64,000 nucleotides of DNA, from contig JABUFD010000008.1 of the NCBI GenBank assembly GCA_013314735.1, forward strand, positions 1 through 64,000, written 5' to 3'. A program made the translations under genes and the position numbers. The notes beneath the pieces were generated by a model. It ran no database searches and was not told the DNA's origin. It was given only the letters and a program-made list of their open reading frames with translations. Shown piece after piece: positions 6,644 to 41,128 of the stretch (its first letter is position 1; every line of letters starts with the position of its first letter). This DNA is from Anaerolineae bacterium. Its GTDB lineage: Bacteria; Chloroflexota; Anaerolineae; Anaerolineales; Anaerolineaceae.

Positions 6644-8050
6644 ATGGAAGGTTTATTGACAATCGCATTGGTCGCATTTATTGTGATCATCTTTTTCACC
6701 CTGCTGTTCCTGGCCAGCCGCTTCCGCCGCTGCCCCTCGGACAAGATCCTGGTGGTGTACGGCAAGGTGGAAAAAGGCCGTTCCAGCCGCTGTATGCACG
6801 GCGGCGGGGCTTTCATCTGGCCGCTGGTGCAGGATTACGCCTATATGAGCCTGACCCCGATGACGATCAGCATCCCGCTGGAAGGCGCGCTCTCGCTGCA
6901 GAACATCCGCATCAACGTGCCCAGCACCTTCACGGTCGGCATCAGCACCCAGCCGGAGATCATGATGAACGCCGCGGAACGGTTGCTGGGCATCAACCAG
7001 CAGGCGATCGAGGACATGGCCAAGGAGATCATCTTCGGCCAGCTGCGCCTCACCGTGGCTTCGCTGACGATCGAGCAGATCAACCAGGACCGCGAAAGCT
7101 TCCTGGATTCGATCCGCCAGAACGTGGAACCCGAACTGAACAAGATCGGCCTGTACCTGATCAACGTGAACATCACCGACATCACCGATTCCTCCAACTA
7201 CATCGACAGCATCGGCAAGAAAGCCGCCTCCGAAGCGGTCAACAAAGCCCGTGTGGATGTGGCTGAGCAGGAAAAACTGGGTGCGGTGGGTGAATCGCTG
7301 GCGGTGCGCGAAAAGGACATCAGCGTTGCCGAAAACGTGGCAGCTTCCGTCAACGGGCAGAAGAAAGCCGAAACCGAGCGGCGCGTGTACGTGCAGAACC
7401 GCGAAGCGGAAGCCGTGCAGGGCGAAAACCTGGCGAAAGCCAACATCGCCAAGGCCGAAGCCGAACTGGCAATCCAGCAGGCCGAAGCGCGCCAGCGCGC
7501 CGAGATCGCGCGGCGCAACGCCGAAGTGGAGATCCAGAAGGCGCAGTACCTGGCCGAACAGCAGCGCCTGCGCGCCGAGCAGATTGTGCAGCAGGAAATT
7601 GAGAAGCAGCAGGTGGAAATTTCCGCCGAAGCTGAAGCCGAACGTATCCGCCGCATCGCCAAGGGTGAAGCCGATGGCGTGCTGCTGAAGTACCAGGCCG
7701 AAGCCGAAGGCCTCAAGCGCCTGCTGGCGAGCAAGGCTGCCGGCTACAAGGAACTGGTGGCCGGCGCGGGCAATGATCCCCAGGCCGCCGCCACCCTGTT
7801 GCTGTTGGAAAAAATGGCCGACCTGGTCAAGTACCAGACCGAAGCGATCGGCAAATTGCAGATCGACAAGATCACGGTATGGGACAACGGCGGCAGCGGC
7901 GAAGGTTCCGCCACCTCGAACTTCATCGCCAACCTGTTCAAGAGCCTGCCGCCCCTGCACGAGATTTCGAAGATGGCCGGTGTGGAATTGCCCGCCTACC
8001 TCGGCAGCGTGGTGAGCGAAGGCGAAACCGAACCCGCCGAAGAAGCGTAG
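6644..8050 (+). CDS. flotillin-like protein (SPFH/Band 7 domain + EA-rich coiled-coil flotillin domain; FloT/YuaG-like)
   Basis: N-terminal TM, SPFH region, long E/A/Q/R-rich coiled coil (AEAELAIQQAEARQRAEIARRNAEVEIQKAQYLAEQQR). RBS GAAAGGAAA before ATG 6644. Confidence 0.85.
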   Translation: MEGLLTIALVAFIVIIFFTLLFLASRFRRCPSDKILVVYGKVEKGRSSRCMHGGGAFIWPLVQDYAYMSLTPMTISIPLEGALSLQNIRINVPSTFTVGISTQPEIMMNAAERLLGINQQAIEDMAKEIIFGQLRLTVASLTIEQINQDRESFLDSIRQNVEPELNKIGLYLINVNITDITDSSNYIDSIGKKAASEAVNKARVDVAEQEKLGAVGESLAVREKDISVAENVAASVNGQKKAETERRVYVQNREAEAVQGENLAKANIAKAEAELAIQQAEARQRAEIARRNAEVEIQKAQYLAEQQRLRAEQIVQQEIEKQQVEISAEAEAERIRRIAKGEADGVLLKYQAEAEGLKRLLASKAAGYKELVAGAGNDPQAAATLLLLEKMADLVKYQTEAIGKLQIDKITVWDNGGSGEGSATSNFIANLFKSLPPLHEISKMAGVELPAYLGSVVSEGETEPAEEA

Positions 8051-8128: not shown

Positions 8129-8147
8129 CCCACCCCGGCCCTCCTTC

Positions 8148-8316
8148 CTCCGCCGCGGTGAAGGCACGGGAACCATTTTCACGCTGCCCCGCCTGCCCCA
8201 TCCCGGAGGTGGGTATGAAAGCAACATACACTGTTACTGCACTTCCCACCTCCGGGATGGAATGGATCGGCGAAACGCTGACCCGGTGAAGGGGAACGCC
8301 ACGCGGACAAACCGCC
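8148..8316 (+). repeat. R1 hairpin repeat, copy 1 (REPIN-like; inverted arms ccatcccggaggtggg / cccacctccgggatgg at 8198-8260)
   Basis: Near-identical to 11462-11628. The 5' module ggcacgggaacc[a/g]ttttcacgctgccccgcctgcccc is shared with 10636-10712 and 13275-13340. Confidence 0.75.
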
Positions 8317-8413
8317 ATTCCCCCCGCCCCCACAGCCCCCGGCATGGGCGGGTTCGGGTATAATCAAACCCAGGCGCACCCACCATTGTCCTGAACGGGG
8401 AGGAATACCCACC

Positions 8414-10072
8414 ATGAACCAGTTGTATTACGGCGACAATCTCACCATCCTGCGGGAGTACATCCCGGCGGAATCCGTCGACCTGATCTACCTCGACCCG
8501 CCCTTTAATTCCAACCGCAATTACAATATCCTGTTCAAGGAAGAAAGCGGGGAACAAAGCGCGGCGTAGTTGACCGCGTTTGAAGATACCTGGCACTGGG
8601 ACATCAACACCGAAGGCCTCTACCAGGAGATGGTCACCTCGGCCGACATGCCGCCGCAGGTGAGCAGCATGATCGCCGCGCTGCGCAATTTTATTGGCAC
8701 CAACCCGATGATGGCGTACCTGGTGAACATGAGCGTGCGCCTGGTGGAACTGCACCGCGTGCTCAAACCCAGCGGCTCGCTCTACCTGCACTGCGACCCC
8801 ACCGCCAGCCATTACTTGAAGGTGGTGCTGGATGCCATTTTTGGGTTTGAGAATTACCGGAACGAAATTGTGTGGAAACGCCAATCCGCGCACAGCGATG
8901 CACGATATAAATTCTCTGACGTGGCTGATATTATCTTCTTTTATGTTAAATCGGGCAAAGCGTTATTCACACCACAATATACAGAACATGACCCGGAGTA
9001 TATTAAGAAATTCTACCGTTATGATGACATGGATGGGCGAGGGCCATATCGCCTTGCTGACATGGCATCACCAAACCCACGCCCAAATATGATGTACGAG
9101 TGGAAGGGATACGGTTATCCGAGCAAAGGATGGCGGTACCAAAGGGATACCATGCAGAAGCTGGATGAGGATGGTCGCATATATTACCCCATAAAAACCG
9201 ATGGAAGCCCAGATTATACAAAGCGATTGGCATTGAAAAGGTACCTTTCAGAACAGGAAGGCTCAATAGTAACTAATATATGGGATGATATCCAGCCATT
9301 GCACGGTGCTACAGCCGAACGCCTTGGTTACCCGACGCAAAAACCGCAGGCGCTGCTGGAGCGCATCATCAGCGCCTCCTCCAACCCCGGCGATGTCGTG
9401 CTGGATCCGTTCTGCGGCTGCGGCACCGCCGTGGCCGCGGCGCAGGCCCTCGGGCGGCGCTGGATCGGGATCGACATCACCCACCTTTCGATTGCCCTGA
9501 TCAAATACCGCATCGAAGACGCCTTCCCCGAGGCCAAATTTGAGGTGCTCGGCGAACCGCAATCGGTGCAGGACGCGCGCTACCTGGCCGAAAACAGCCG
9601 CCACCAGTTTGAATGGTGGGCGCTTTCGCTGGTGCGGGCGCGCCCCGCCGGGGGCGACGGCGGCAAGACCGGCAAAAAAGGCGCCGACCGCGGCATTGAC
9701 GGCATCATCAACTTCATCGACGGCGCCAAAGGTGCGCCGAAACAGATCATCGTGCAGGTGAAATCCGGGCACGTCTCCTCTGCCCACATCCGCGACCTGG
9801 TGGGCACGCTCGAACGCACCAAGGCCGCCATCGGCGTGTACCTCACCCTCGAAGAACCGACCGCCCCCATGCGCAAAGAGGCCGCCGAAGCCGGCTTTTA
9901 CCATTCCGACCTGTGGAACCGCGACTACCCGCGCGTGCAAATCTACACCATCGAAGAACTGCTCTCCGGCGCCGCGGTGCAGATGCCGCCCACCAGCGCC
10001 AACGTCACCTTCCAGCGCGCCCAGCGCCAGAAAAGCGAAGACAGCACCCGCCAGCCGGATTTGTTCGGTTAA
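8414..10072 (+). pseudogene. beta-class N6-adenine/N4-cytosine DNA methyltransferase fused to a C-terminal Mrr-type (PD-(D/E)xK) restriction endonuclease-like domain; interrupted by an in-frame TAG at 8567-8569
   Basis: N-terminal DLIYLDPPFNSNRNYN (motif IV) lies in the same frame as downstream ..AFEDTWHW.., ending in DPFCGCGT (motif I). These are separated only by an amber codon at the position where homologues have Q. C-terminal DRGIDGI..IIVQVKSG matches the Mrr catalytic motif. TATAAT at 8358-8363 and a GGGGAGGAA RBS precede ATG 8414. Confidence 0.7.
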
Positions 10073-10110
10073 GGGGAAGGGGGTAATGTTGGATTTTCAC
10101 ACATTGCTTG

Positions 10111-10139
10111 TTGCATTTTCGCACATCAAGGGATATAAT
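10111..10139 (+). promoter_or_regulatory. sigma70-like promoter for the XRE gene (TTGCAT -17 bp- TATAAT)
   Basis: TTGCAT at 10111-10116, 17-bp spacer, TATAAT at 10134-10139. Confidence 0.5.
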
Positions 10140-10182
10140 CATAGCGTGAAGTAATTTGCGCCTATGTGAAAGAGAGAATCCC

Positions 10183-10515
10183 ATGAACAGCGAATTGTCG
10201 ATGCATTTGAAAGAAATGCGGACCAAATTGAATTTCAGCCAGGAATATGTTGCCAGGTTGATGAACGTCAACCGCAGTGTGATCACCGCGATTGAATCCG
10301 GCAAACGCAGCGTCAGCGCGGAAGAATTGGATCAATTCTCGGCCATTTACGGCGTCTCGATGGAAATGCTTCTGCACGGAGAAGATGACCTTAACCATGT
10401 GCGTGTCTTCAACCGCATGTTTGACGCGCTGAGCGAGACCGACCAGCAGGAGATCCACAACCTGATGCAATTCAAGATCAACCTCAAGCGATCACTGGCA
10501 TCGGATGAACCATAA
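10183..10515 (+). CDS. XRE-family helix-turn-helix transcriptional regulator
   Basis: LNFSQEYVARLMNVNRSVITAIESGKRSVSAEEL is a Cro/C1-type HTH. ATG 10183 after a consensus promoter. Confidence 0.8.
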   Translation: MNSELSMHLKEMRTKLNFSQEYVARLMNVNRSVITAIESGKRSVSAEELDQFSAIYGVSMEMLLHGEDDLNHVRVFNRMFDALSETDQQEIHNLMQFKINLKRSLASDEP

Positions 10516-10635
10516 ACCGCACGTTATATACCAGCATCAATCTCCCGAAGAACTTGCCGCAGATGTTCTTCGGGAGTACCATAGTTATGCGTTCAACCCA
10601 TCCAACACCCACAACATCCCACTCACCTTCCCCCT

Positions 10636-10712
10636 GCCGCGGAGAAGGCACGGGAATCATTTTCACGCTGCCCCGCCTGCCCCATCGCCTCCGGCATGGG
10701 CGGGTTCGGGTA
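10636..10712 (+). repeat. R1 repeat, copy 2 (5' module only; hairpin deleted)
   Basis: gaaggcacgggaatcattttcacgctgccccgcctgcccc followed by ccggcatgggcgggttcgggta, which also follows copy 1 at 8330-8352. Confidence 0.65.
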
Positions 10713-10749
10713 GGGGGAAAGAAGGGATGACTGCATATTCATCGACTGC

Positions 10750-10799
10750 TTGACAAATTTGCCGTCATCCTGTACAGTAATACTGTACAGACACGGAGT
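10750..10799 (+). promoter_or_regulatory. yefM-yoeB promoter with tandem palindromic operator (2x CTGTACAG)
   Basis: TTGACA 10750-10755, 17 bp, TACAGT 10773-10778. Self-complementary CTGTACAG at 10770-10777 and 10783-10790 overlaps the -10 box. GGAG RBS before ATG 10805. Confidence 0.55.
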
Positions 10800-10804
10800 G
10801 TAAA

Positions 10805-11083
10805 ATGACGATTCAGACAACCTATACCCAGGCCCGTGACGGCCTGGCAAAATTGATGGACCAGGTGACGCATAATCGTGAAGTGGTGATTATCCAGCGC
10901 CGCGGTGAAGAGGAAGTAGCGATGATTGCCGCAGCGGAATTGGAAAGCCTGATGGAGACCGCCTACCTGCTGCGTTCCCCTGCCAATGCCGAACGCCTGC
11001 TTTCCGCCCTGGGGCGCGCCCTGAAACACGAGGGCACCCCGCAAAGCCTCGATGATCTGCGGCAGGAGACCGGGCTTGTCTAA
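10805..11083 (+). CDS. yefM: Phd/YefM family type II antitoxin
   Basis: MTIQTTYTQARDGLAKLMDQVTHNREVVIIQRRG..ESLMETAYLLRSPANAERLL is a typical YefM sequence. Overlaps the downstream toxin gene. Confidence 0.85.
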   Translation: MTIQTTYTQARDGLAKLMDQVTHNREVVIIQRRGEEEVAMIAAAELESLMETAYLLRSPANAERLLSALGRALKHEGTPQSLDDLRQETGLV

Positions 11084-11345
11084 AAAAGCGCGCGTAGCGG
11101 TCTTTCAGCCCGAGTTCATCGAGGACCTGCGCCATTGGGTGGAAACCGACCGCAAGCTGGCGCTGCGTACCTTCGACCTGATCGAAGCCATCTTGCGGGA
11201 TCCGTTCAACGGCATCGGCAAGCCGGAACCACTTAAATACCTGGCGCCGGGTACATGGTCCCGCCGGCTGACGCAGGAGCATCGTATCGTGTACCTGGTG
11301 CGCGATGAACAGATCGACTTTCTCCAGGCACGCTACCATTACTGA
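11052..11345 (+). CDS. yoeB: YoeB/Txe family type II toxin (ribosome-dependent mRNA interferase)
   Basis: ..FQPEFIEDLRHWVETDRKLALRTFDLIEAILRDPFNGIGKPEPLKY..SRRLTQEHRIVYLV.. matches YoeB. The true start is probably TTG 11076, overlapping the yefM stop by 8 nt. Confidence 0.8.
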   Translation: MICGRRPGLSKKARVAVFQPEFIEDLRHWVETDRKLALRTFDLIEAILRDPFNGIGKPEPLKYLAPGTWSRRLTQEHRIVYLVRDEQIDFLQARYHY

Positions 11346-11461
11346 GCGGATATTTCCCTTGATCTTTGGGATTAACGTTGTACAAATCTGCAATTGGAAT
11401 GCAGATTTGTACAGGTTTGTTAACATTTTCATCCACCCGGCCCATATTGACCCCTGTGCCC

Positions 11462-11628
11462 CCCGCCGCGGTGAAGGCACGGGAACCGTTTTCACGCTGC
11501 CCCGCCTGCCCCATCCCGGAGGTGGGTATGGAAGCAACATACACCGTTACCGCACTTCCCACCTCCGGGATGGAATGGATCGGCGAAACGCTGACCCGGT
11601 GGAGGGGAACGCCACGCGTACAAACCGC
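11462..11628 (+). repeat. R1 hairpin repeat, copy 3 (full length, REPIN-like)
   Basis: Near-identical to copy 1, including hairpin arms ccatcccggaggtgggtatggaagcaacatacaccgttaccgcacttcccacctccgggatgg. Confidence 0.75.
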
Positions 11629-11707: not shown

Positions 11708-13183
11708 CTAGGCCTCCGCACTGAACAAATACGCCGTACCGGGCTGATCCCAACCATCCAGAAAAACTTCCGCGGTCCAATACTTGTCCGGGTACGGAAT
11801 ATTGACCCCATCGCCAAGGATGATATTCCTTGTCACATCATACATGGCGTCGCTGTCATAGCCCTCGCGTTTGTGCATGGCCTCCACATCGCCGGAGAAA
11901 GTGGCGCAGGCAAACTGGGAACAGAACGGCGGCCCCGCTTTTCCATCGTTCACCGGTACGAAGTCGAAGAACAGGAATCCTTCCGGGACAGGGGTGGATG
12001 CTTTCATCAGGCGCCCCCAAAAACCGTGCCACGGCCCCACATCCACGCCCAACCCATAATGGTGCATGAACAATATATCATAGCCAAAATCTGATTCGTA
12101 CCCGCTCATCGCGTCCAGGGTGCGGAAGAGTTCTTTCCGCTGTTCCAGGTTGTCCAGGTCAGTCAGCTCCTGCCCAATGAAGCGCATGGCAGGCATTTTT
12201 TTGTATTCAAAGCTCTCCACCCGGAAGCCCTGCTGCTGTTTCTTCACCGTATCGGGCATAAACAACGCCCACTGCACCTGGGCATCGCAATTTTTCAGAT
12301 AATTGACATAGCCAAAGACCTCCACGCTGTCGGTGCCTGTCGGCCCGGTTTTGTTTCCCGCGATTTTCTCCCGAATGCCCCGCTCCCGCATGACTGAGAA
12401 GTCGGCAAACATGTTGGCCACCGTTTCCCGTAACCCCTCCTCGCAGGGCTGCCCGGACAGTTCGTCATCAAATCGATCCAGGGCTTTGAACACAGCCGCA
12501 TTGACCACGCCGGCGGGTTCGAGCTCTTTCAGGCATGCCCGCAGCTGGTCATTTTGTTGCTTGAAGCGCCCAAGCACCCCCTGCATCAAAATCTGCTCAT
12601 TTTCCGCCAGTTGATCCGCACCCCATTGGGAATCATCAAGGATCCATTCGGTCAATTCATCAAAGACCCCCGGATTTTGCCCCCTGGCTTTGCCTGCCCA
12701 GCTGACCAACCGCTTATACTTCTCGATGGCTGACAGTGGTTCGCCCTTGTCATCGTCGATCTCGTTCCAATCGACCAGGTAAAATTCGCCCATTTGTGGG
12801 TATGTCATATCAAAACCTCCTTGAATGTTGATAGTAATCGTCAGGGGGTGGAACATCCTGACCCTGCCCCGCCGGATTTTCGATGGCGGCACCCCGTGAA
12901 ACCGCGTGAACGCCCTGGAAAAGCTCTCCTGTGTATCGTACTGATAGCGGAACGCCACATCCATGATTTTGCTCGCTGGCTGCAGCAAATCCTGCGCGGC
13001 CAGGCTCATGCGCCGATTGCGGATATACTCACCGACGGTGATGCCCATGACCAGGTGAAACAACAGCTGAAAATGGGAGCTTGATGTATACGCCTGTCTT
13101 GCCAACTCGTCGATGTTGAGTTCGCTGGTCAGGTTATTTTCGATGAACGCTATGGTTTTTGACAGGCTCTGAATCCAGTTCAT
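11708..13183 (-). CDS. AraC-family transcriptional regulator with large (~380-aa) C-terminal domain of unknown function
   Basis: N-terminal AraC HTH: IENNLTSELNIDELARQAYTSSSHFQLLFHLVMGITVGEYIRNRRMSLAAQDL...DVAFRYQYDTQESFSRAFTRFHGVPPS. Start either at the MNWIQ.. Met (13183) or at 13234. Confidence 0.7.
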   Translation of the reverse strand: MNWIQSLSKTIAFIENNLTSELNIDELARQAYTSSSHFQLLFHLVMGITVGEYIRNRRMSLAAQDLLQPASKIMDVAFRYQYDTQESFSRAFTRFHGVPPSKIRRGRVRMFHPLTITINIQGGFDMTYPQMGEFYLVDWNEIDDDKGEPLSAIEKYKRLVSWAGKARGQNPGVFDELTEWILDDSQWGADQLAENEQILMQGVLGRFKQQNDQLRACLKELEPAGVVNAAVFKALDRFDDELSGQPCEEGLRETVANMFADFSVMRERGIREKIAGNKTGPTGTDSVEVFGYVNYLKNCDAQVQWALFMPDTVKKQQQGFRVESFEYKKMPAMRFIGQELTDLDNLEQRKELFRTLDAMSGYESDFGYDILFMHHYGLGVDVGPWHGFWGRLMKASTPVPEGFLFFDFVPVNDGKAGPPFCSQFACATFSGDVEAMHKREGYDSDAMYDVTRNIILGDGVNIPYPDKYWTAEVFLDGWDQPGTAYLFSAEA

Positions 13184-13274
13184 CCACTGCCCTCCTTCAT
13201 CCATATCATACAGTCGGATTGCGAAAAAAGCCATGTCAGAAAATACGATGTTTTGTCCGTTCCCTGCCTTCCCA

Positions 13275-13340
13275 CCGCCGCGGGGCAGGCACAGGAACCG
13301 TTTTCACGCTGCCCCGCCTGCCCCGCACACGAACCGTGCA
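13275..13340 (+). repeat. R1 repeat, copy 4 (5' module only)
   Basis: ggcaggcacaggaaccgttttcacgctgccccgcctgcccc, immediately upstream of tRNA-Phe. Confidence 0.65.
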
Positions 13341-26146: not shown

Positions 26147-26269
26147 TGTCTATAAAAATGGCTACAATCATGGATAGTATTCTCTGCAGCCATCGGCGAT
26201 TGATCATGAATGTGATCAATTTTCCTGAACAGGCGGGGAATCATCGAAGAGGATCGAGGAGTGTACAGC
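26147..26269 (+). promoter_or_regulatory. promoter (TACAAT at 26163) plus ~100-nt leader, identical to the leader of the downstream paralog
   Basis: 26163-26272 is base-for-base identical to 29483-29592. Contains a uORF (MDSILCSHRRLIMNVINFPEQAGNHRRGS..) overlapping the kinase start out of frame. Confidence 0.5.
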
Positions 26270-29200
26270 ATGCCCTACATGGTAGATCATCGGTACCTGG
26301 TAGGTGAACAATTGGGTGTGGGAGGCATGGGCGCGGTGTACCGCGGCAAAGACACCCGCCTGCAGCGCGATGTCGCCATCAAGCGCCTGCAGATTTTTGG
26401 ATCCCAGGCGGATGTTGATCAGTTCATGAAGCGTTTCGAACGCGAAGCGATTGCCATGGCGCAGCTGCAGCATCCCAATATTGTTGGTGTCCTCGATTTT
26501 GGGCAGGATGATCAAGGCATTTTCCTCATCCTGCAATATATGCCCGGCGGATCGTTGAAGGACCGGATGACTGCCCCGTTCAATCCGCAATCAGCCGCTG
26601 CCCTGCTGGCGCCGATCGCTGACGCGCTGCATTACGTCCATGATCAGGGCATGATCCACCGCGATGTCAAACCCGGCAATATCCTGTTTGACGCGCGCGG
26701 CAACCCCATGTTGGCGGATTTCGGCATCGTCAAGCTGGTGGAGGATACTCCTGGTGCCACCCTGACCGGAACCGGTACGGCGATTGGCACACCCACCTAC
26801 ATGGCGCCTGAACTGATTGGCGGGGAATTTGACCACCGGGTGGACCAATATGCCCTGGGCATTATTTTTTATGAAATGGTCACCGGGAAGGCACCCTTCA
26901 CCGGGCGCACGCCGATGGAAGCGATGGTGGCACACAAGTATGAACCCCTGCCGGATCCGCGCCTTTTGTGCCCCGGCCTGCCGCAGGACGCCTGGGACCT
27001 GATCGTGCGCGTATTGGCGAAGGACCCTGAACAGCGTTACGAGGACAGCGGGCAATTTTCCGCCGCGCTGCGCCGGCTGGGACAGCCCCCCACCCCAACC
27101 CCGCAACCGCAGCCGAAACCCGGCGAAGAACCCACCAGCCTGGTGGAAGACGAACTGCCCTTCAACCTCCCCGCCAAAACGCCGCAACCGCCTGCGCCGG
27201 GGATGCAGGCGGTATCAGAGGAGGATGAAACCCAGGGCGTCATCACACCTGGCAAAGGTACACCCGTGCCCCCGCCGCCATTTGTTGGGAATGAAACCCC
27301 AGGAGGCGCTCCGCTTTCTGCGCCATCCCTGGTGCGTGATGAAGCCTTAAAGCCACCTGCCAAGAAGAAGCGCGCCTGGGTATGGGTTCTGGGGGGCCTG
27401 GGTGTACTTCTCTTTTTGGGTGTGGCCCTGGTGCTGTTGATCACCATGCTGACCAAAGGGATTATGGAACCTGCAGCAACCCAGGTGGCACAAACCCATC
27501 TGGAGACCAAAGTTCCGACCATTACATCCCGACCCCAGCCCACCGTTACGCCCACACTCCCCTCTCAGATCGATAACAACACAGCTTCTGCTTTGCAAGT
27601 AAAAACGAGGATCGGAAAGGGGAACGCCAATATTGCTCTCTATTCACCCGATGGCAGTCTGCTGGTGATTGGCAATTCCAGCGGGTTCTACCTGCTGGGT
27701 GCTGATACCGGCAAAGAACTGTCTTCTGTACAGGATATCTATGTAACTTCGCTGGCAATCGCCCCCAGCGGGAATGCCCTTGCGACTTTGGACCAGGATG
27801 GCTACCTGACCCTGTGGGACATTCAAAACAAATTTGCGCCCGCCATTCTGCAGCAATATCCTGCTGCTGCGCCTGGCGCTTCGTTGAGGGCAGCCACGTT
27901 TTCACCTGACGGTAACAGCCTGGCCTATGCGGATTACGATACCATTTTTTTCTATTCCTTTGAGTCAGGGACAGTTACTGGCCAGGTTGAGTGGACTGAC
28001 AGCAATATATCACAGCTACAATTCAATCCTGATGGACAGTCCATTTACGGCGCAGCAAATCAATTGGGTCTGATTGGCTTGTGGGATATGAACACTTTGA
28101 GTCTAACGACTACCTTCCCGGTAGGTTTTGTTTTCAATTTCGCACTTGCCCCCGATGGATCGCTGTTGGCAGTTTATGATAGCAATGAGGGCACCCTGAA
28201 ATTTTTCAAACCTGCCAATGCATCCCAATTTATGGAACCAATCCAAACAAATGGTTATGTCAGTGACCTTGCCTTTTCAGCTGACGGCGCCAGTTTGTAT
28301 GGAGCCATCAATGGTAACACGATCAGTCGTTGGATCTTAGTGGATGATCGCTCACAACTGACTTATCCATTAAATAATGACCAGGCTTATTTGTTTGATC
28401 TCGCGCCGGATGGCAGCAGCCTTGCCTGGACAGGATTCGGCGCTGTCGGTGTTTTTGATTTTGATACTGAACAAGCCAAATTTGATACCGATCAATTTGA
28501 TTATACCGGGGTTCTGGTGGAAGGATGGGTGAATGGAGAAGTTCTGTATGTCAACGATGATCACAACGGTTCTGTCATTCTGAGGAATACCAGCGGAATT
28601 GCGAAACAACACCTTGATTCTACCGCCATCACAACCTGGTTGGATTCCGTCACTGTCTCTTCCAATGGGCAATACCTGGCAGCCAGGTCCTATGTGAATG
28701 GCGCCATTGTTCTGCTGGTCTGGGATCTGAATACAAAACAGCTGTTAAAGCAAGTTCCGCTTGCTGATTGGGTCGGTGACTTTCGGTTTTCTGATGACAG
28801 TCAATTTTTAACAGTGGTGAATGGCATGACTGCCACTGTGTATCGAACTGATACCTGGGGAATCCATTACGGATATACTGTTACCGATGCTGCATTAACG
28901 ATCGCAAAATACTATCCCGAGTTTGATCTCCTGGTGCTTGCGGGGTATGGGCGACCGTTGTTGATCAATCCACTCAGCGGCTATACCGTTGAATTGCCAT
29001 TGAATGTCCCTGCCGAGGGTGTTTTCGATCTGGAACTATCCAGGGATGGCAGCCTGCTCTTCCTGGTCAGCGGGAAAAGCCTGTTGATCTGGAATATTCC
29101 CGACCAAACGTTTGTCCTCGAAGCCTATGACTTGCTGCCGAATAATGCGGTTGAGCTGGCGCTCAATACCAGTGAGACCCTGCTGGCGATCGGCGATAAC

Positions 29201-29359
29201 ATTGGCAATATCGTGTTTTTGGACCTGACAACCAATATAATACTGGGTGTGTTGCGGCAACATTTCGCCTCGATCCGGTGGTTGACGTTCAGTGTTGATG
29301 ACCACGAGTTGATCTCATTCGGTGATGACGGCATAACCAACATTTGGGGAATCCAATAA
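26270..29359 (+). CDS. Ser/Thr protein kinase - Pro-rich linker - TM - C-terminal beta-propeller (WD40/PQQ-like repeats)
   Basis: GVGGMGAVYRGKD, VAIKRL, HRDVKPGNILF, DFGIVKL, GTPTYMAPE. Hydrophobic helix WVWVLGGLGVLLFLGVALVLLI. Repeated ~40-aa blocks with SPDG/APDGS..L..G..DG.. motifs. GAGGAG RBS 9 nt before ATG 26270. Confidence 0.85.
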   Translation: MPYMVDHRYLVGEQLGVGGMGAVYRGKDTRLQRDVAIKRLQIFGSQADVDQFMKRFEREAIAMAQLQHPNIVGVLDFGQDDQGIFLILQYMPGGSLKDRMTAPFNPQSAAALLAPIADALHYVHDQGMIHRDVKPGNILFDARGNPMLADFGIVKLVEDTPGATLTGTGTAIGTPTYMAPELIGGEFDHRVDQYALGIIFYEMVTGKAPFTGRTPMEAMVAHKYEPLPDPRLLCPGLPQDAWDLIVRVLAKDPEQRYEDSGQFSAALRRLGQPPTPTPQPQPKPGEEPTSLVEDELPFNLPAKTPQPPAPGMQAVSEEDETQGVITPGKGTPVPPPPFVGNETPGGAPLSAPSLVRDEALKPPAKKKRAWVWVLGGLGVLLFLGVALVLLITMLTKGIMEPAATQVAQTHLETKVPTITSRPQPTVTPTLPSQIDNNTASALQVKTRIGKGNANIALYSPDGSLLVIGNSSGFYLLGADTGKELSSVQDIYVTSLAIAPSGNALATLDQDGYLTLWDIQNKFAPAILQQYPAAAPGASLRAATFSPDGNSLAYADYDTIFFYSFESGTVTGQVEWTDSNISQLQFNPDGQSIYGAANQLGLIGLWDMNTLSLTTTFPVGFVFNFALAPDGSLLAVYDSNEGTLKFFKPANASQFMEPIQTNGYVSDLAFSADGASLYGAINGNTISRWILVDDRSQLTYPLNNDQAYLFDLAPDGSSLAWTGFGAVGVFDFDTEQAKFDTDQFDYTGVLVEGWVNGEVLYVNDDHNGSVILRNTSGIAKQHLDSTAITTWLDSVTVSSNGQYLAARSYVNGAIVLLVWDLNTKQLLKQVPLADWVGDFRFSDDSQFLTVVNGMTATVYRTDTWGIHYGYTVTDAALTIAKYYPEFDLLVLAGYGRPLLINPLSGYTVELPLNVPAEGVFDLELSRDGSLLFLVSGKSLLIWNIPDQTFVLEAYDLLPNNAVELALNTSETLLAIGDNIGNIVFLDLTTNIILGVLRQHFASIRWLTFSVDDHELISFGDDGITNIWGIQ

Positions 29360-29466: not shown

Positions 29467-29589
29467 TGTCATCTGAAAGGGTTACAATCATGGATAGTAT
29501 TCTCTGCAGCCATCGGCGATTGATCATGAATGTGATCAATTTTCCTGAACAGGCGGGGAATCATCGAAGAGGATCGAGGAGTGTACAGC
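29467..29589 (+). promoter_or_regulatory. duplicate promoter/leader (identical to 26147-26269)
   Basis: Identical 110-bp stretch including TACAATCATGGATAG and the RBS. Confidence 0.5.
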
Positions 29590-32500
29590 ATGGCCTACAT
29601 GGTGGATAATCGTTATCTGGTCGGTGAACAACTCGGCGTTGGCGGCATGGGTGCGGTCTACCGCGGCAAAGACACCCGCCTGCAGCGCGATGTCGCCATC
29701 AAGCGCCTTAACATCCTGGGGGGAAAAGCCGAAGTCGATCAGTTCATGAAACGTTTCGAACGCGAAGCGATTGCCATGGCGCAGCTGCAGCACCCCAACA
29801 TCGTGCGCGTACTCGATTTTGGGCGGGATGATGAAGGCATCTTCCTCATCCTCGAATTCATGTCCGGCAGGTCGCTGAAAGAGCGCATGACAGCCCCCTT
29901 TGATCCGCGCGCGGCAGCAATCCTGCTGGCGCCGATCGCCGATGCGCTGCATTATGTGCACGAACGGGGCATGATCCACCGTGATGTGAAACCCGGCAAC
30001 ATCCTGTTTGACGCGCGCGGCAACCCCATGCTGGCGGATTTCGGCATTGTCAAGCTGGTGGAGGAATCCCCCGGTGCCACCCTGACGGCGACGGGCATGG
30101 CGGTGGGTACGCCCACTTACATGGCGCCGGAGTTGATCGGGGGTGAATTTGACCACCGCGCCGACCAGTACGCGCTGGGGATCATCTTTTATGAAATGGT
30201 GACCGGCAAACCGCCCTTTAAGGGCCGCACGCCGATGGAAGCGATGGTGGCACACAAGTATGAACCCCTGCCGGATCCGCGCCTTTTGTGCCCCGGCCTG
30301 CCGCAGGATGCCTGGGACCTGATCGTGCGCGTATTGGCGAAGGACCCTGAACAGCGTTACGAGGACAGCGGGCAATTTTCCGCCGCGCTGCGCCGGCTGG
30401 GACAGCCCCCCACCCCAACCCCGCAACCGCAGCCGAAACCCGGCGAAGAACCCACCAGCCTGGTGGAAGACGAACTGCCCTTCAACCTCCCCGCCAAAAC
30501 GCCGCAACCGCCTGCGCCGGGGATGCAGGCGGTATCAGAGGAGGATGAAACCCAGGGCGTCCGTACCCCCGCGCGGGGGCTGCCGCTGGCACAGCCGCAA
30601 TATCACTGGGAACCGCAGCCAGCCGCGTCGGTTCAACCTGCCCCGCCCACCCCTGCGGCGGTTGCGGCGAAGAAAACAATCCCTGCCTGGGCCTGGGTGC
30701 TGGGAGGGGTTGGCCTGTTCACGATGGCAACCCTGGTGGTGGTGGCGGTGCTCCTGATCCGCAACGGGCTGTTCTCACCGGCTGCCACAGAAGAACCCTA
30801 CGCGTTCGAAGCGGCCACCGAAGCGCCAATGGCCGCGGCGGAAGAAACCGCCACGCAAGGGCCAACCGAGGCCCCCACCGCAAGCATGGTGCTTTCCGGC
30901 GGGGTGATCACCGCCGCCAACGTTGACCAGCTGCAGCCTGCATCCATCTTCGGCAAAGGCGGCGACCATCTCCCGCTCTTCACCCCCGATGGACGTTTCC
31001 TCCTGCTGGGCAACACCGACGGGCTGTATGTGTTCGATGCCGTCAGCGGGGTGGAGATCAGCCACACGCCGGGCCGCTACATCACCGCCATGGCGCTTTC
31101 GCCGGACGGCAGCGCCCTGGCCACGTTGGATTACAGCGGTTACCTCAGCCTGTGGTCGATCGGCGACGGCAGCGCGCCTTACCTGTTCCAGGCCTACCAG
31201 TACCAAGGCGGCAACAACTGGGACCTGCGCGCGCTGGCCTGGTCGCCCGACGGCAGTGTGATCGCCTTCAGTGACGCCTACACGATCTACTATTATTCCG
31301 TTGAAAAAAATGATGTTTTCAACACGGCTTATTGGGAAAACAGCCTGATCCGCGACCTGGCGTTCAGCCCGGACGGCAACCTTGTGTATGCCGCCGCCAA
31401 CAACCTCGCCTTGGTGGGGGTGTGGATCGCTGAAACTTCCACCCTGTACACCACCATTCCGGTCAATTACCCCTACTATATCGACCTATCGCCGGATGGA
31501 ACGCGCCTGGCGGTGTTTGACGCCGAGGAATACAGCCTGAAGCTGTTCAGCCTCTCCTCCTACCTCCTGGAACGCGCCTACAGTGTTGACGGGTACATGA
31601 ATGAAATGCGCTTTTCCCCTGATGGCACCGCCCTGTATGCCGTCCTCAGCAACGGCCAGGTCAACCGCTGGGAGGTGGGCGGCAGTGACCAGCCCCTCAC
31701 GCGCCAGCTGCCGGAAGGCTATGGCACACGCTTCTCGCTGTCGCCCGGCGGCTGCCTGGCGGCCTGGAGCAACTGGCTCCGGGTTGGAACCTACGACCTG
31801 TGTCAGGGTACCCCGGGTTTCTCCCTGGATGCTTTCACCACCCGCGGTAACCCGGTGAGGGGCTGGGTGAACGATGAATTGCTGTTCTCCGATACAGAGA
31901 GCCAACCGGGGCGGGTGCTCATCCGCGATATCTTCGGCGATGTGCGCCATGGGCTGGACATCTCATCCTACAACACCTGGATGTACCCGGTCAGCATTTC
32001 CCCCGACGGCACCACCCTGGTTGGCGGGGTGTATTACCAGAACACCTACAATATCCTGCTGTTCGACCTGGCTTCGGAATCGCTGCTGGGGATGTTCGCG
32101 GTGGATGAATATCCAATCGACCTGCGCTTTGCGCCAGACAGCCAGTCTTTTGTCTACTGCGGCAGCAGCCTCACCCGCATTTACAATATTCACAACTGGT
32201 GGGAGGGACCGTTCTACAGCCTGGATGGGTTGGAATACATGCAGGTGGGCAAGTATTTCCCGGCCTATGACCTGCTTGTGCTGGGCCAGTTCGCGAAAGT
32301 GCAGCTGGTATCACCGGCCAGCGGGGAAAGGTTCGAGCTGCCTGTGCCGGGGGGATATGTGGAAGGGATCGCGCTTTCCGCTGACGGCAGCCGGGTATAC
32401 GTGGCCAGCGGCCGTTCCCTGTACGTGTACGACCGCCGGACGGGTGCCTTTGTGGCGCAAGCCCCGGACAGCCTCCCGACAGAAGGATATGCGCTTGCCC

Positions 32501-32697
32501 TGAATGGGTCGGAAACCCTGCTGGCAGTCGGCGATACGCAGGGCGCGATTCACCTGTTCGACGCGCAAAACCTGGGCTGGGTGCGCACCCTCTACCGCCA
32601 CACCTACGGCATGGCAGACCTGCAGTTTGCGCCCGATGACCGGGCATTAACCTCCACCGGTTGGGATGCCCTGAGCGTGGTGTGGGCCGTGCCGTAA
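29590..32697 (+). CDS. Ser/Thr protein kinase - linker - TM - beta-propeller, paralog of 26270-29359
   Basis: Kinase domain ~90% identical at protein level to the upstream paralog; the identical PTPTPQPQPKPGEEPTSLVEDELPFNLPAKTPQPPAPGMQAVSEEDETQGV linker is retained. The C-terminal repeat domain has diverged. Confidence 0.85.
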   Translation: MAYMVDNRYLVGEQLGVGGMGAVYRGKDTRLQRDVAIKRLNILGGKAEVDQFMKRFEREAIAMAQLQHPNIVRVLDFGRDDEGIFLILEFMSGRSLKERMTAPFDPRAAAILLAPIADALHYVHERGMIHRDVKPGNILFDARGNPMLADFGIVKLVEESPGATLTATGMAVGTPTYMAPELIGGEFDHRADQYALGIIFYEMVTGKPPFKGRTPMEAMVAHKYEPLPDPRLLCPGLPQDAWDLIVRVLAKDPEQRYEDSGQFSAALRRLGQPPTPTPQPQPKPGEEPTSLVEDELPFNLPAKTPQPPAPGMQAVSEEDETQGVRTPARGLPLAQPQYHWEPQPAASVQPAPPTPAAVAAKKTIPAWAWVLGGVGLFTMATLVVVAVLLIRNGLFSPAATEEPYAFEAATEAPMAAAEETATQGPTEAPTASMVLSGGVITAANVDQLQPASIFGKGGDHLPLFTPDGRFLLLGNTDGLYVFDAVSGVEISHTPGRYITAMALSPDGSALATLDYSGYLSLWSIGDGSAPYLFQAYQYQGGNNWDLRALAWSPDGSVIAFSDAYTIYYYSVEKNDVFNTAYWENSLIRDLAFSPDGNLVYAAANNLALVGVWIAETSTLYTTIPVNYPYYIDLSPDGTRLAVFDAEEYSLKLFSLSSYLLERAYSVDGYMNEMRFSPDGTALYAVLSNGQVNRWEVGGSDQPLTRQLPEGYGTRFSLSPGGCLAAWSNWLRVGTYDLCQGTPGFSLDAFTTRGNPVRGWVNDELLFSDTESQPGRVLIRDIFGDVRHGLDISSYNTWMYPVSISPDGTTLVGGVYYQNTYNILLFDLASESLLGMFAVDEYPIDLRFAPDSQSFVYCGSSLTRIYNIHNWWEGPFYSLDGLEYMQVGKYFPAYDLLVLGQFAKVQLVSPASGERFELPVPGGYVEGIALSADGSRVYVASGRSLYVYDRRTGAFVAQAPDSLPTEGYALALNGSETLLAVGDTQGAIHLFDAQNLGWVRTLYRHTYGMADLQFAPDDRALTSTGWDALSVVWAVP

Positions 32698-32829: not shown

Positions 32830-34623
32830 TTATTTGCCCAGCCGCGCCAGTTCCGCCGCCACGATGCTTTCATCGAGCTTGACGAACAGCGGTTCGGGTT
32901 TATTAAAGGCGCGCCCGGCCTGCAATGCACTCGGCTGCCACTGCCCGGCGGCAGCAGCGGGGTCGTAGCGCAGCACGCTGTGGCTGCCGAGGGTGTCGGC
33001 GGCCTCCTGCGTGAAACCGCTGCCGAACAGGGGTTGTTCGTAATGGAGGAAGCCGTGCAGTTTTTCACTGCTGAAGGGCAGGAACGGTGCGAACAGCACC
33101 TTGAGCGAGTCGATCGCGCGCATGGCGGTGAAAATCGCCCGCGCCGCGGCGGTCTCATCGGTTTTGACCACCTTCCACGGCTCGGTCACATCGAGGTACT
33201 TGTTGACCTCACTCGCCAGGCGGATGCATTCTGCCAGCGCCGCGCGCAGCTTCACGCCTTCGATCAACTCGCCGACCGTGCCAAACCCGGCCTCGATCGC
33301 CGCCAGCAGTTCGCTATCGAGCGCAGTCAGCTCGCCCGGTTCGGGGATCACGCCGTTCCAGCGCTTGTGGGCAAAGCCCAGCACGCGGTTGGCCAGGTTG
33401 CCCCAGGTGGCAATCAGTTCGCCGTTGTTGCGGTTGTAAAAGTCCTCCCACGCCCAATCGGTGTCCTTGGTTTCGGGCATGGTCATCGTCAGGTAATAGC
33501 GCAGGGGGTCGGGGTCGTAGCGCTCGAGGTAATCGAGCACCCACACGCCCCAGTTGCGGCTGCCGGAAATTTTCTGCCCCTCCATGTTCATAAACTCATT
33601 GGCGGGTACATCATAAGGCAGCACCAGCGGCTGCGGGTCGGCGGCGCCCATCAGGGCGTCAAAATCGGTGCCGGCGCCCAGCAGTTCCGCCGGCCAGATG
33701 ATGGCATGGAAGGGGATGTTGTCCTTGCCGATGAAGTAATAGGTTTTGGAAGCGGGGTTGGTCCACCATTCGCGCCATGCGTCGGGCTGGCCGGTGAGTT
33801 TGGCGTACTCCACCGCCGCCGAAAGGTAGCCGATCACGGCCTCGAACCACACGTACAGGCGCTTGCCGTCCCAGCCTTCCAGCGGCACGGGGATGCCCCA
33901 CTCCAGGTCGCGCGTGATGGCGCGCCCGCGCAGGGGGTTGTTCTCGATCTGCCCCAGCGATTGGCGGATCACATTCGGGCGCCAATAGCTTTCGCGCTGG
34001 CGCAGGAAATCAGCCACCTCGCCTTCCAGCGCGCCCAGGTCGAGGAAGAAATGCTCGGTATCGCGCAACTCGGGGGTGGAGCCGTCCACCTTGGAGCGCG
34101 GGTCGATCAGTTTGTCGGCTTCCAGCAGGCTGCCGCACTTGTCGCACTGGTCGGAACGGGCGTTGTCGTAGCCGCAGATGTAGCAGGTGCCTTCCACGTA
34201 GCGGTCGGGCAGGAATTTGCCCTGGGCGGGCGAATACCACTGCTTCTGGGTATCGGTATAGAGGTAGCCGTTTTCCTTCAGGACTGTGAACAGCTTTTGC
34301 GCCACATCGAAATGGTTTTCGGTGTGGGTGCTGGTAAAGAGGTCATAGGTGATGCCGGTTTTCTGGAACAGGTCGAGAAAACGGTGGTGGAAGCGCTGGT
34401 AGATGTCCAGCGGGGTGGCGTTCTCGGCATCGGCGCGCACGGTGATGGGTGTGCCGTGGGCGTCGGTGCCGGACACCATCAGCACCTGGCGGCCGCGCAT
34501 GCGGTGGTAGCGCGCGACAATATCCGCCGGCAAATGCGAGCCGGTCATATTTCCCACATGAATATCGGCGTTGCCGTACGGCCACGCCACGCACACCAAT
34601 ACAGGTTCAGCCATAGCGATCAT
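32830..34623 (-). CDS. metG: methionine--tRNA ligase
   Basis: Class I aaRS with HVGN (HIGH-type) motif, zinc knuckle CYICGYD..CDKCG, and GQKISGSRNWGV (KMSKS-type) motif. 597 aa. Confidence 0.85.
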   Translation of the reverse strand: MIAMAEPVLVCVAWPYGNADIHVGNMTGSHLPADIVARYHRMRGRQVLMVSGTDAHGTPITVRADAENATPLDIYQRFHHRFLDLFQKTGITYDLFTSTHTENHFDVAQKLFTVLKENGYLYTDTQKQWYSPAQGKFLPDRYVEGTCYICGYDNARSDQCDKCGSLLEADKLIDPRSKVDGSTPELRDTEHFFLDLGALEGEVADFLRQRESYWRPNVIRQSLGQIENNPLRGRAITRDLEWGIPVPLEGWDGKRLYVWFEAVIGYLSAAVEYAKLTGQPDAWREWWTNPASKTYYFIGKDNIPFHAIIWPAELLGAGTDFDALMGAADPQPLVLPYDVPANEFMNMEGQKISGSRNWGVWVLDYLERYDPDPLRYYLTMTMPETKDTDWAWEDFYNRNNGELIATWGNLANRVLGFAHKRWNGVIPEPGELTALDSELLAAIEAGFGTVGELIEGVKLRAALAECIRLASEVNKYLDVTEPWKVVKTDETAAARAIFTAMRAIDSLKVLFAPFLPFSSEKLHGFLHYEQPLFGSGFTQEAADTLGSHSVLRYDPAAAAGQWQPSALQAGRAFNKPEPLFVKLDESIVAAELARLGK

Positions 34624-34714
34624 CCTCCAAATGGAACAATTTGTAGCGAAATTGTATCATGAAGGGCAATGCGCGGGGAAGTTAAGATCACCCTTCGACA
34701 GCACTTCGGCAGCA

Positions 34715-35075
34715 CTTCGGCAGGCTCAGTGTGAAGCTCAGTGCAGGAGCTCAGGGAGCGTATTATTTCAACGGTCGCCGAGCGGGTTCCTGAGCCTGTC
34801 GAAGGATCGAGGCGACATTCTGCGGGTAACTTACGTTCTCCCCTCGACACACTTCGACAGGCTCAGTGCAGGAGCTCGGGGAGCGTGTTAATGGGGTGCG
34901 TGTTAACGCAACGGTCGCCGAGCGGGTTCCTGAGCCTGTCGAAGGATCGAAGCGACATCCTCCGTCCAAGGCGACATTCTGCGGGTAACTTACGTTCTCC
35001 CCTCGACACACTTCGACAGGCTCAGTGCAGGAGCTCGGGGAGCGTTTTTAAAGGGTGCGTGTTAATGGGCCGGGT
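34715..35075. repeat. left flanking copy (2+ tandem units) of a hairpin repeat (T family: cctgagcctgtcgaagg ... cttcgacaggctcag)
   Basis: Units at 34771-34918 and 34911-35075 share acggtcgccgagcgggttcctgagcctgtcgaagg..gcgacattctgcgggtaacttacgttctcccctcgacacacttcgacaggctcagtgcaggagctcggggagcgtgttaatgg. Same family and orientation at 44170-44400. Confidence 0.75.
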
Positions 35076-35210
35076 ATTAACGGGGAGCGTGTTGTTTCCC
35101 CCCGCAAAAACTGCTTGCGCCCGGTTGCGCAGGGGCGGTTTTTGGCGTATCATTAATATTCGGGCATCAAGCCCGCCGCCAAGTCTATCCACGGGGAGGG
35201 TACCCAACCA

Positions 35211-39150: not shown

Positions 39151-39300
39151 GCCAATGGCCATGCGCACAACCAGCAACGCTCCTGCCAATTGCTTGCACG
39201 CGGCTGTGCTTTGCGCTATACTATTCACCAGTAAACCCGCCAAGCCTCTGCCCCATTGGGGCATGCGCCACTGTGGTGGGTGTTTCTTTTTGGGGGCAGC

Positions 39301-40629: not shown

Positions 40630-41128
40630 CAACCTGGTCAAAGACTTTGCCCAACGCACGCGCGAGAACCTGGCCTACATTGACGCCGCCCATGCCCGCG
40701 GCGAAAACGTGTACGAGGTCACCCAGCTGGTCAATTCCTTGCTGGGGCTGTTGATCTTCCCCCAGCAGCGCTGGGTTAACCGTGTTCCGCGCATCGGTCT
40801 CGAAGAACTGGTGCGGCGCGGCTGGCCGGAAATCCATCCCACCCCACGCATCCAGGCAGATGCACACTTTCAACAGGCCGATAACCTGCATGACCTGGTG
40901 CGCGTTCTGCGCAATTCCATTGCCCACTGCAATATCGAAATTTCGGATGTGGATGCCAACAACGAGATATGCGGCCTGCGCATCTGGAACATCAACCGTC
41001 AGGGAGATAAAACCTGGGAGGCGGAGCTATCCATCGCCGACCTGCGCGCATTGGCAGAAAATTTTGCTGTGCTAATGACGCAGGACCCGCGCAATTGGGG
41101 ATCAGCCGCAGGAGGGGAACACCCATGA
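40619..41128 (+). CDS. small HEPN-like protein (R-x4-H motif LRNSIAH) translationally coupled between hsdS and hsdR
   Basis: 169 aa. RBS GAGGAGG before ATG 40619, which overlaps the hsdS stop; its stop overlaps the hsdR ATG (ATGA). RNSIAHCN fits the HEPN R-x4-6-H motif; the family assignment is tentative. Confidence 0.5.
   Translation: MDYNNLVKDFAQRTRENLAYIDAAHARGENVYEVTQLVNSLLGLLIFPQQRWVNRVPRIGLEELVRRGWPEIHPTPRIQADAHFQQADNLHDLVRVLRNSIAHCNIEISDVDANNEICGLRIWNINRQGDKTWEAELSIADLRALAENFAVLMTQDPRNWGSAAGGEHP

Follow-up and report, generated by a model that had tools for sequence, protein, structure and literature searches.

A probable nonsense-mutation pseudogene of a solitary Mod-like DNA methyltransferase carrying a C-terminal Mrr-cat domain

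Results and discussion

The gene at positions 8414 to 10072 of the 64,000-nucleotide stretch of Anaerolineae DNA that we analyzed (hereafter, the window) is very probably a pseudogene, produced by a recent nonsense mutation in a gene for a solitary Mod-like methyltransferase/Mrr-cat fusion. The ancestor would have been a stand-alone enzyme of 552 amino acids, comprising motif IV, a central target-recognition domain, motif I, a helical linker and Mrr-cat, and one C>T transition would have changed Gln-52 (presumably CAG) to an amber TAG. Translation should now end after 51 residues, shortly past the DPPF of motif IV, with neither the methyltransferase nor the nuclease domain made; the nuclease domain would be lost with the methyltransferase because the two lie on the same polypeptide. 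The event appears to be recent, and the gene is presumably non-functional in its present state. Such a loss would be tolerated: since the two domains share a single chain and the stop comes at codon 52, both activities would vanish together and no unprotected restriction would remain. In an intact enzyme of this family, a single exchangeable central domain would direct methylation and, possibly, cleavage.

A single amber codon in an otherwise intact frame

The frame runs on the plus strand from the ATG at 8414 to the TAA at 10070-10072, and its single internal stop is the TAG at 8567-8569 (Table 1), with the result that the listing of open reading frames (ORFs) shows two in its place, one of 51 codons and one of 500 codons that begins at TTG 8570. 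This continuity and the places of the sequence motifs are as the original prediction described them. Judged by full-length homologues with E = 0, the 552-codon frame cannot have originated by chance, and in the alignment the amino terminus of the repaired translation (the stop read as Gln) starts level with residues 1-2 of the homologues.

The homologue search returned at least 8000 sequences, the best 120 of which were aligned; 119 of these are full-length. Every full-length sequence (119/119) has Gln in the column of the TAG, and at 81 homologous genome loci the corresponding codon is CAG in 64 and CAA in 17, so that the comparison of homologues places the amber exactly at a conserved Gln, as had been claimed. 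Because the column is invariably Gln and its codon is CAG at 64 loci and CAA at 17, one C>T transition (CAG>TAG) explains the lesion.

Besides the TAG we found no second lesion in the gene. All residues conserved at 98% or more among the 119 homologues are kept, and the six deviations at positions of 90-96% consensus each bring in a residue that is also present in intact homologues. That the gene is pristine but for one lesion speaks for a very recent inactivation, and on this point our analysis agrees with the original prediction. An uninterrupted polypeptide bearing both motifs is not encoded here, the TAG at codon 52 parting motif IV from the rest, and by this measure the window copy, as predicted from its translation, is a pseudogene.

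Table 1. Coordinates of the gene, its parts and the neighboring repeats in the window
Feature	Position	Strand	Remarks
Structured intergenic repeat, 169 nt, upstream copy	8147-8315	+	Context, outside the gene
Shine-Dalgarno-like GGAGG	8399-8403	+	10 nt 5' of the ATG; read off the sequence; expression signal kept
Codons 1-51, N-terminal methyltransferase fragment	8414-8566	+	Contains motif IV, DPPF (nt 8495-8506)
Amber TAG at codon 52	8567-8569	+	Replaces the Gln of aligned homologues; ancestral codon presumably CAG
Last 500 codons and TAA	8570-10072	+	Remainder of methyltransferase core, target-recognition centre, motif I and Mrr-cat; without motif IV; identical to P0001
Central segment, codons 140-310, putative target-recognition region	8831-9343	+	Between the conserved NEIVWKR and ERLGYPTQKP; foreign codon usage
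Motif I, AdoMet-binding loop DPFCGCGT, aa 331-338	9404-9427	+	C-terminal to motif IV, the beta-class permutation
Mrr-cat (PD-(D/E)XK superfamily), aa 393-493	9590-9892	+	Pfam Mrr_cat and NA-iREase1
Structured intergenic repeat, partial copies	10630-10712; 13262-13327
Structured intergenic repeat, second full copy	11460-11628

The encoded methyltransferase and Mrr-cat domains

Both domains named in the original prediction are matched by Pfam above its cut-offs. In the repaired translation, N6_N4_Mtase (PF01555) scores 150.1 bits (cut-off 26.7) over residues 22-357, and Mrr_cat (PF04471) scores 37.3 bits (cut-off 21); NA-iREase1, a family named as inactive, scores slightly above Mrr_cat at 41.4 bits (cut-off 27). 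Motif IV (DPPF, residues 28-31) and the AFEDTWHW block (residues 55-62) lie ahead of motif I, and this is the permuted order of beta-class N6/N4 methyltransferases. The encoded methyltransferase is accordingly placed, on its predicted translation, in the beta class, as a Type III Mod-like enzyme of the N6_N4 type with a large central insert. The DPPF motif, together with best matches that are adenine-specific, only suggests N6-adenine as the target.

Structural comparison used the AlphaFold model (pLDDT 79) of P0002, the closest intact relative. Its best fold matches in Foldseek are EcoP15I Mod (4zcf_A; E = 1.6e-21) and the Helicobacter pylori Mod (6k0w; E = 8.6e-19), the latter being the only solved sequence that covers query residues 2-347; CcrM, M.BceJIV, M.MboIIA and M.RsrI follow. 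In PADLOC the protein matches MTase_II and MTase_III models (MTase_III, 1.4e-40), and the fold of a Type III Mod with a central recognition domain is thus found both by structure (EcoP15I Mod) and by profile. Against the NCBIfam equivalog for CcrM the score is 83 bits, for a cut-off of 830.

In the carboxyl-terminal domain, GADRGIDG (residues 423-430) and VQVK (residues 447-450) supply a D...QxK signature, with putative catalytic residues D425/D429 (block at nt 9680-9703) and Q448-V-K450 (block at nt 9752-9763), each conserved at 98% or more among the 119 homologues. A PD-QxK catalytic site has been described for EcoKMrr and MspJI, and the modification dependence of the Mrr/MspJI Type IV enzymes comes from a separate winged-helix or SRA reader (PMC12707154). 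For the last 172 residues encoded by the window gene itself, an AF2 model (pLDDT 84) has MspJI (5e-5) and AspBHI (3.6e-3) as its best PDB matches. Given its near-invariant catalytic residues, the Mrr-cat nuclease may be active, an expectation tempered by the slightly higher score against the 'inactive' NA-iREase1. Pfam recognized only the methyltransferase and Mrr-cat/NA-iREase1, with no winged-helix or SRA reader, and in the P0002 model the joint between the two domains consists of a short helical linker only. With no reader domain, the Mrr-cat is to be taken as no more than a putative cleavage or DNA-binding module, and there is no reason to expect modification-dependent cleavage.

A widespread family of single-gene units

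All 119 full-length proteins among the matches listed share one architecture, a nuclease and a methyltransferase domain on one polypeptide, and are about 550 amino acids long. Relatives are encoded by 407 stretches in species-representative genomes, from Chloroflexota, Planctomycetota, Acidobacteriota, Proteobacteria and other phyla, and the 81 genome loci that we checked are all single uninterrupted ORFs of about 520-570 codons. Full-length relatives also occur on plasmids of rhizobia and actinobacteria and in phages of Streptomyces and Mycobacterium, where they are annotated plainly as DNA methylase. Within 4 kb of the 81 loci no neighboring gene family recurs, whether Res, a separate restriction enzyme, or a controller or other fixed regulator. 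The gene thus forms a solitary and mobile unit by itself.

The original prediction had offered a self-toxic, modification-dependent nuclease fusion as one reason for the inactivation. Because the fusion is widespread and intact elsewhere (at the 81 loci, and on plasmids and in phages as well), it is unlikely to be inherently self-toxic, and the reader domain that modification dependence would call for is absent; this suggestion is therefore not supported.

We found no papers on this methyltransferase/Mrr-cat fusion in the literature searched; a paper on HVO_A0006 of H. volcanii was set aside, because the Type IIG fragment that it treats is another one, in which the nuclease is N-terminal. Domain databases already list the architecture, and the literature searched yielded no biochemical characterization of it.

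An exchangeable recognition centre, and a possible role for it in the inactivation

The central segment stands out by its codon usage: GC3 is 0.46 within codons 140-310 and 0.85 outside them (log-likelihood ratio 44, with 0 of 200 permutations as strong), and the shift persists when amino acids are taken singly (Ala, 0.29 versus 1.00; Pro, 0.30 versus 1.00). The breakpoints of the shift coincide with the conserved blocks that border the recognition centre. Some pairs of family members have flanks that are 94-96% identical and centres that are only 33-42% identical (for P0002 and P0120, 95% and 39%). Averaged over the family, synonymous sites are richer in AT within the centre than within the flanks, whatever the GC class of the host. 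Swapping of the central domain between alleles is known for Type III mod genes. From these sequence comparisons, the centre appears to behave as an exchangeable target-recognition cassette. We did not use the GC3 dip to date a swap, because the dip is partly family-wide, and the search for a close donor of the window's AT-rich centre found none (best match 75-79%).

These observations bear on a different account of the lesion, in which the amber was selected: a recent replacement of the centre by recombination would have conferred a new specificity that left the chromosome unprotected, and the null allele would have let the cells survive. The foreign codon usage of codons 140-310, the exchange of centres elsewhere in the family and the near-invariant catalytic residues of an Mrr-cat whose nuclease may be active all fit such a knock-out, which we nevertheless regard as improbable, since nothing ties the swap and the amber together in time, a centre that is AT-richer family-wide dates no swap by its dip alone, no close donor is at hand and the nuclease activity is only putative. 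The same low estimate covers, jointly, a variant in which the conflict was with a resident GmrSD-like Type IV enzyme; a GmrSD-like gene does lie at 37252-39150, and the variant is at odds with the preference of GmrSD enzymes, which are known for modified cytosines and not for m6A.

A more far-reaching synthesis would see in the family single-chain restriction-modification enzymes of an uncharacterized class, in which a Mod-like beta-class methyltransferase and an active Mrr-cat are both guided by one exchangeable central cassette that travels among phyla, plasmids and phages, with the window copy caught just after a cassette replacement and its cell rescued from self-restriction by the amber. 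Taken as a whole, we give this little credence.

The amber codon in a second assembly

The original prediction had also allowed for a sequencing or assembly error. One database protein, P0001, is the 500-residue downstream product, and it lies on a 3253-nt Logan contig (L001) from run SRR6186653 that is 100% identical to window positions 8259-11511, TAG included; gene callers give the same 51 + 500 split on it. The Logan contig is an Illumina-only short-read assembly and spans the site of the TAG without a break. SRR6186653 is an Illumina metagenome from a 2.8-km-deep aquifer (borehole 5P, Western Siberia), and the genomes published from that sample were built by merging Illumina contigs with MinION reads, followed by Pilon polishing (PMC7509429, PMC5701477). 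Most likely the same Illumina reads underlie both the window and the Logan contig, which would make these two assemblies and not two samples. Because the second assembler yields the same base, an assembly error is an unlikely source of the TAG.

Searches for the organism beyond this run gave little. The MFS gene of the window was found only in SRR6186653, an exact look-up of the flotillin gene for a second sample returned nothing, and the best identity among the GTDB representative loci returned was 66%. In a collection of 15 billion proteins there was no intact, near-identical allele (the next best match is 77% identical), and JGI metagenome contigs, scanned for exact matches to either allele (NAG at the site), gave 0.

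The TAG might, then, misrepresent the gene, either through an error of sequencing, consensus calling or polishing or because the population is polymorphic and TAG is one of its alleles, perhaps not the dominant one. A metagenome-assembled consensus can conceal a minority CAG allele, which weighs against the pseudogene reading; the restriction of the organism to one sequencing run and the mixed, Pilon-polished origin of the genomes published from this sample (PMC7509429) favor this alternative. We nonetheless consider this quite improbable, given that an independent short-read assembler called the same base in a contig unbroken across the site, that Illumina substitution errors are rare at consensus depth, and that neither the protein collection nor the JGI contigs held an intact near-identical counterpart.

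The TAG as a working stop codon

In a crude gene call of the window, TAG ends 5 of 42 genes, including both flanking genes: the upstream flotillin gene (6644-8050) and the downstream AraC-like gene (11708-13234, minus strand). Genome-wide recoding of TAG was rejected on the ground that these neighbors stop at it. The only tRNA in the 64-kb window is a tRNA-Phe, no suppressor tRNA was found there, and Rfam recognized no recoding RNA signal in the window. A scan for ORFs with TAG read as a sense codon was dominated by off-frame ORFs of the high-GC sequence. Within the window, the lack of a suppressor tRNA and the five genes that end in TAG thus speak against reassignment or suppression of TAG as Gln.

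If a suppressor tRNA or context-dependent read-through decoded the amber, giving low or conditional amounts of the full-length enzyme, the gene would be the suppressible switch of the original prediction. The otherwise pristine gene and its preserved ribosome-binding site are compatible with this, and they count against the pseudogene reading to the extent that a suppressed or read-through gene, still expressed, would equally show zero further decay. With no suppressor tRNA in 64 kb, no recognized recoding signal, TAG serving neighboring genes as a working stop and a stop at this position in 0 of 119 homologous proteins and 0 of 81 loci, we think it extremely improbable.

Phase variation, also put forward earlier, was rejected: the site has no simple repeat and the lesion is a base substitution. 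Between 8300 and 8700, homopolymers of at least 6 and short tandem repeats are absent, apart from a C6 run in the upstream spacer; TRF reported only a weak in-frame 12-nt repeat (x1.9); and no inverted repeats bracket the TAG nearby, so that neither a repeat nor an invertible element marks an on/off site as it does in phase-variable methyltransferases. The scan for promoters and terminators around the gene was at chance level.

The 500-codon downstream ORF

As was predicted, a restart at TTG 8570 would yield a product (the 500-codon ORF) lacking motif IV. If translated alone, from TTG 8570 or from the ATG at codon 72, it would be a methylation-dead DNA-binding or nuclease protein; this receives next to no credence from us, for although gene callers do call it (P0001) and it keeps the recognition centre, motif I and Mrr-cat, it lacks the first two core strands and the DPPF of the methyltransferase fold (P0002 model), making misfolding likely, it has no convincing ribosome-binding site ahead of 8570, its candidate start codons are not conserved in the family and no natural short form appears among the best 120 matches or the 81 loci. 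Where the possible restart codons lie, L53 (TTG) and M72 (ATG), most family members carry another residue (Ile in the case of 53), indicating that there is no conserved short isoform. The downstream ORF is thus most unlikely to be a functional gene, and the pseudogene reading stands as the best explanation of the locus.

Genomic surroundings

The gene is located in a 5-kb stretch between the flotillin gene and tRNA-Phe that also contains an AT-rich XRE gene, a Phd/YoeB toxin-antitoxin pair and the AraC-like gene. Four same-orientation copies of a strongly structured repeat (Table 1) separate the genes of this stretch. We examined these flanking repeats by eye as candidate integron attC sites and rejected them, since it is the tip of the hairpin, rather than the base, that carries the GTT/AAC motifs. 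The XRE gene downstream is a match to the PADLOC 'Control_protein' model (5e-11) and is not a conserved neighbor at the 81 loci. Farther downstream, at 35-44 kb, lies a Type I restriction-modification operon into which GmrSD-like (37252-39150) and HEPN genes are inserted.

Implications for annotation and for the family

The window gene should be annotated as a pseudogene and not as a 500-residue 'methyltransferase'. Nonsense-inactivated restriction-modification genes are commonplace, and an inactivation of this kind is an ordinary event for such mobile genes. The family is more useful than the window copy: it is a very abundant stand-alone fusion and would deserve study by enzymologists. Should the nuclease domain prove active, the family would represent a compact new format of single-chain restriction-modification, with an easily exchanged specificity.

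Comparison with known systems

The nearest likeness is to the Type III Mod subunits (EcoP15I, 4zcf; H. pylori, 6k0w), with which the family shares the beta-class motif order and a central target-recognition domain; in this family, too, the centre is exchanged between alleles. In contrast to Type III systems, the Res helicase-nuclease partner is absent, both at the window locus, where the neighbors are the flotillin gene, the XRE regulator, Phd/YoeB and the AraC-like gene and no res is adjacent, and as a conserved neighbor at the 81 loci. A small C-terminal Mrr-cat fusion takes the place of Res.

With the Mrr-cat enzymes of Type IV (EcoKMrr; MspJI, 4f0p/4f0q; AspBHI, 4oc8), the family has in common the Mrr_cat match, the D...QxK signature and the best fold of the C-terminal domain. 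Unlike Mrr and MspJI, it has no reader domain fused to Mrr-cat; the partner domain is a methyltransferase.

Type IIG enzymes (MmeI, BpuSI) and the Type ISP enzyme LlaGI likewise combine a methyltransferase and a PD-(D/E)XK-type nuclease in one chain with one recognition module. In those enzymes the nuclease is N-terminal and the methyltransferase belongs to the gamma class, and LlaGI has a helicase motor besides, whereas the window family has a beta-class methyltransferase, a putative C-terminal nuclease and no motor; the Type IIG arrangement of an N-terminal PD-ExK nuclease with a gamma-class methyltransferase is thus not found. BpuSI is described with that arrangement (PMC3185434), and LlaGI shows that an Mrr-family nuclease motif can occur within a classical, modification-blocked enzyme (PMC2790908).

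The solitary methyltransferases CcrM, M.BceJIV, M.MboIIA and M.RsrI share with the family a common catalytic core and a solitary genomic context. CcrM has an extra C-terminal domain that is required for DNA binding. Compared with CcrM-type enzymes, the central domain of the window family is much larger and its C-terminal domain differs, having a nuclease fold. On present predictions, an intact member would work as a Mod subunit does, but with an Mrr-type nuclease domain built into the chain, and belongs to neither Type III nor Type IV nor canonical Type IIG.

A structured repeat around the methyltransferase gene

Four copies of an intergenic repeat, all in one orientation and all sharing a 55-nt core, set apart the methyltransferase and XRE genes, the Phd/YoeB pair, an AraC-like gene and tRNA-Phe (Table). 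Within the window the repeat is confined to one 5-kb stretch. The two 169-nt units are 96% identical, and the predicted fold (-79 kcal/mol, z = -5.2) includes a 16-bp perfect hairpin. Rfam gave no match to the repeat and its core was not found in JGI metagenome contigs; we regard it as a structured, lineage-specific element. The short-read Logan contig of run SRR6186653 terminates within repeat copies. Deletion of the 3.3-kb block (methyltransferase, XRE and toxin/antitoxin genes) could run through the direct repeats on both sides.

The XRE gene, which starts 110 nt 3' of the methyltransferase gene, has HTH_VI and the restriction-modification 'Control_protein' (5e-11) as its top PADLOC matches. 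It is not a conserved neighbour across the methyltransferase family, and may be a leftover of another mobile module. The antitoxin and toxin genes overlap, with repeat copies on both sides.

Table. Features in and around the repeat-bearing region, the defence island and the kinase pair, with one phage relative
Feature	Position	Strand	Remarks
Repeat, full copies	8147-8315, 11460-11628	+	
Repeat, partial copies	10630-10712, 13262-13327	same as full copies	
XRE-family helix-turn-helix	10183-10515	+	AT-rich, GC about 0.42-0.49
Phd/YefM antitoxin	10805-11083	+	Pfam 7.5e-17
YoeB toxin	11052-11345	+	Pfam 1e-33
Ser/Thr protein kinase-WD40 beta-propeller fusion 1	26261-29359	+	
Ser/Thr protein kinase-WD40 beta-propeller fusion 2	29581-32697	+	
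Type I restriction-modification operon	35211-44139	+	
hsdM	35211-37259	+	
GmrSD-like Type IV nuclease	37252-39150	+	inserted in operon; GC3 only 0.50
hsdS	39256-40629	+	
HEPN pEK499_p136 protein	40619-41128	+	inserted in operon
hsdR	41095-44139	+	
Streptomyces phage OzzyJ relative (MG757163.1)	34161-35741 of the phage record		example

Defence island and kinase paralogues

The Type I operon, with its GmrSD-like and HEPN insertions, is a small defence island. Elsewhere in the window lie two tandem kinase-WD40 paralogues of about 1035 aa each, with third-position GC of 0.58 in the first versus 0.77 in the second.

Mosaicism and phage-borne relatives of the methyltransferase

Among database homologues (proteins P0002-P0120, loci L002-L082), some pairs are 94-96% identical in the flanks but only 33-42% identical in the centre (codons 140-310, window 8831-9343, the target-recognition region), and third-position GC of the centre lies ~0.15-0.2 below that of the flanks, whatever the GC class of the host and whichever amino acid is encoded. 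This mosaicism of the centre runs through the whole family and suggests either frequent exchange of cassettes drawn from an AT-richer mobile pool or GC-biased conversion of the recombining flanks.

Full-length relatives, annotated only as DNA methylase, are also carried, in phage records H16-H25, by Streptomyces phages (about 51 kb) and Mycobacterium phages, at 46-49% identity over 97-98% coverage, nuclease-fold tail included. Retention of this Mrr-cat tail by phages hints at a role for it different from classical host restriction.
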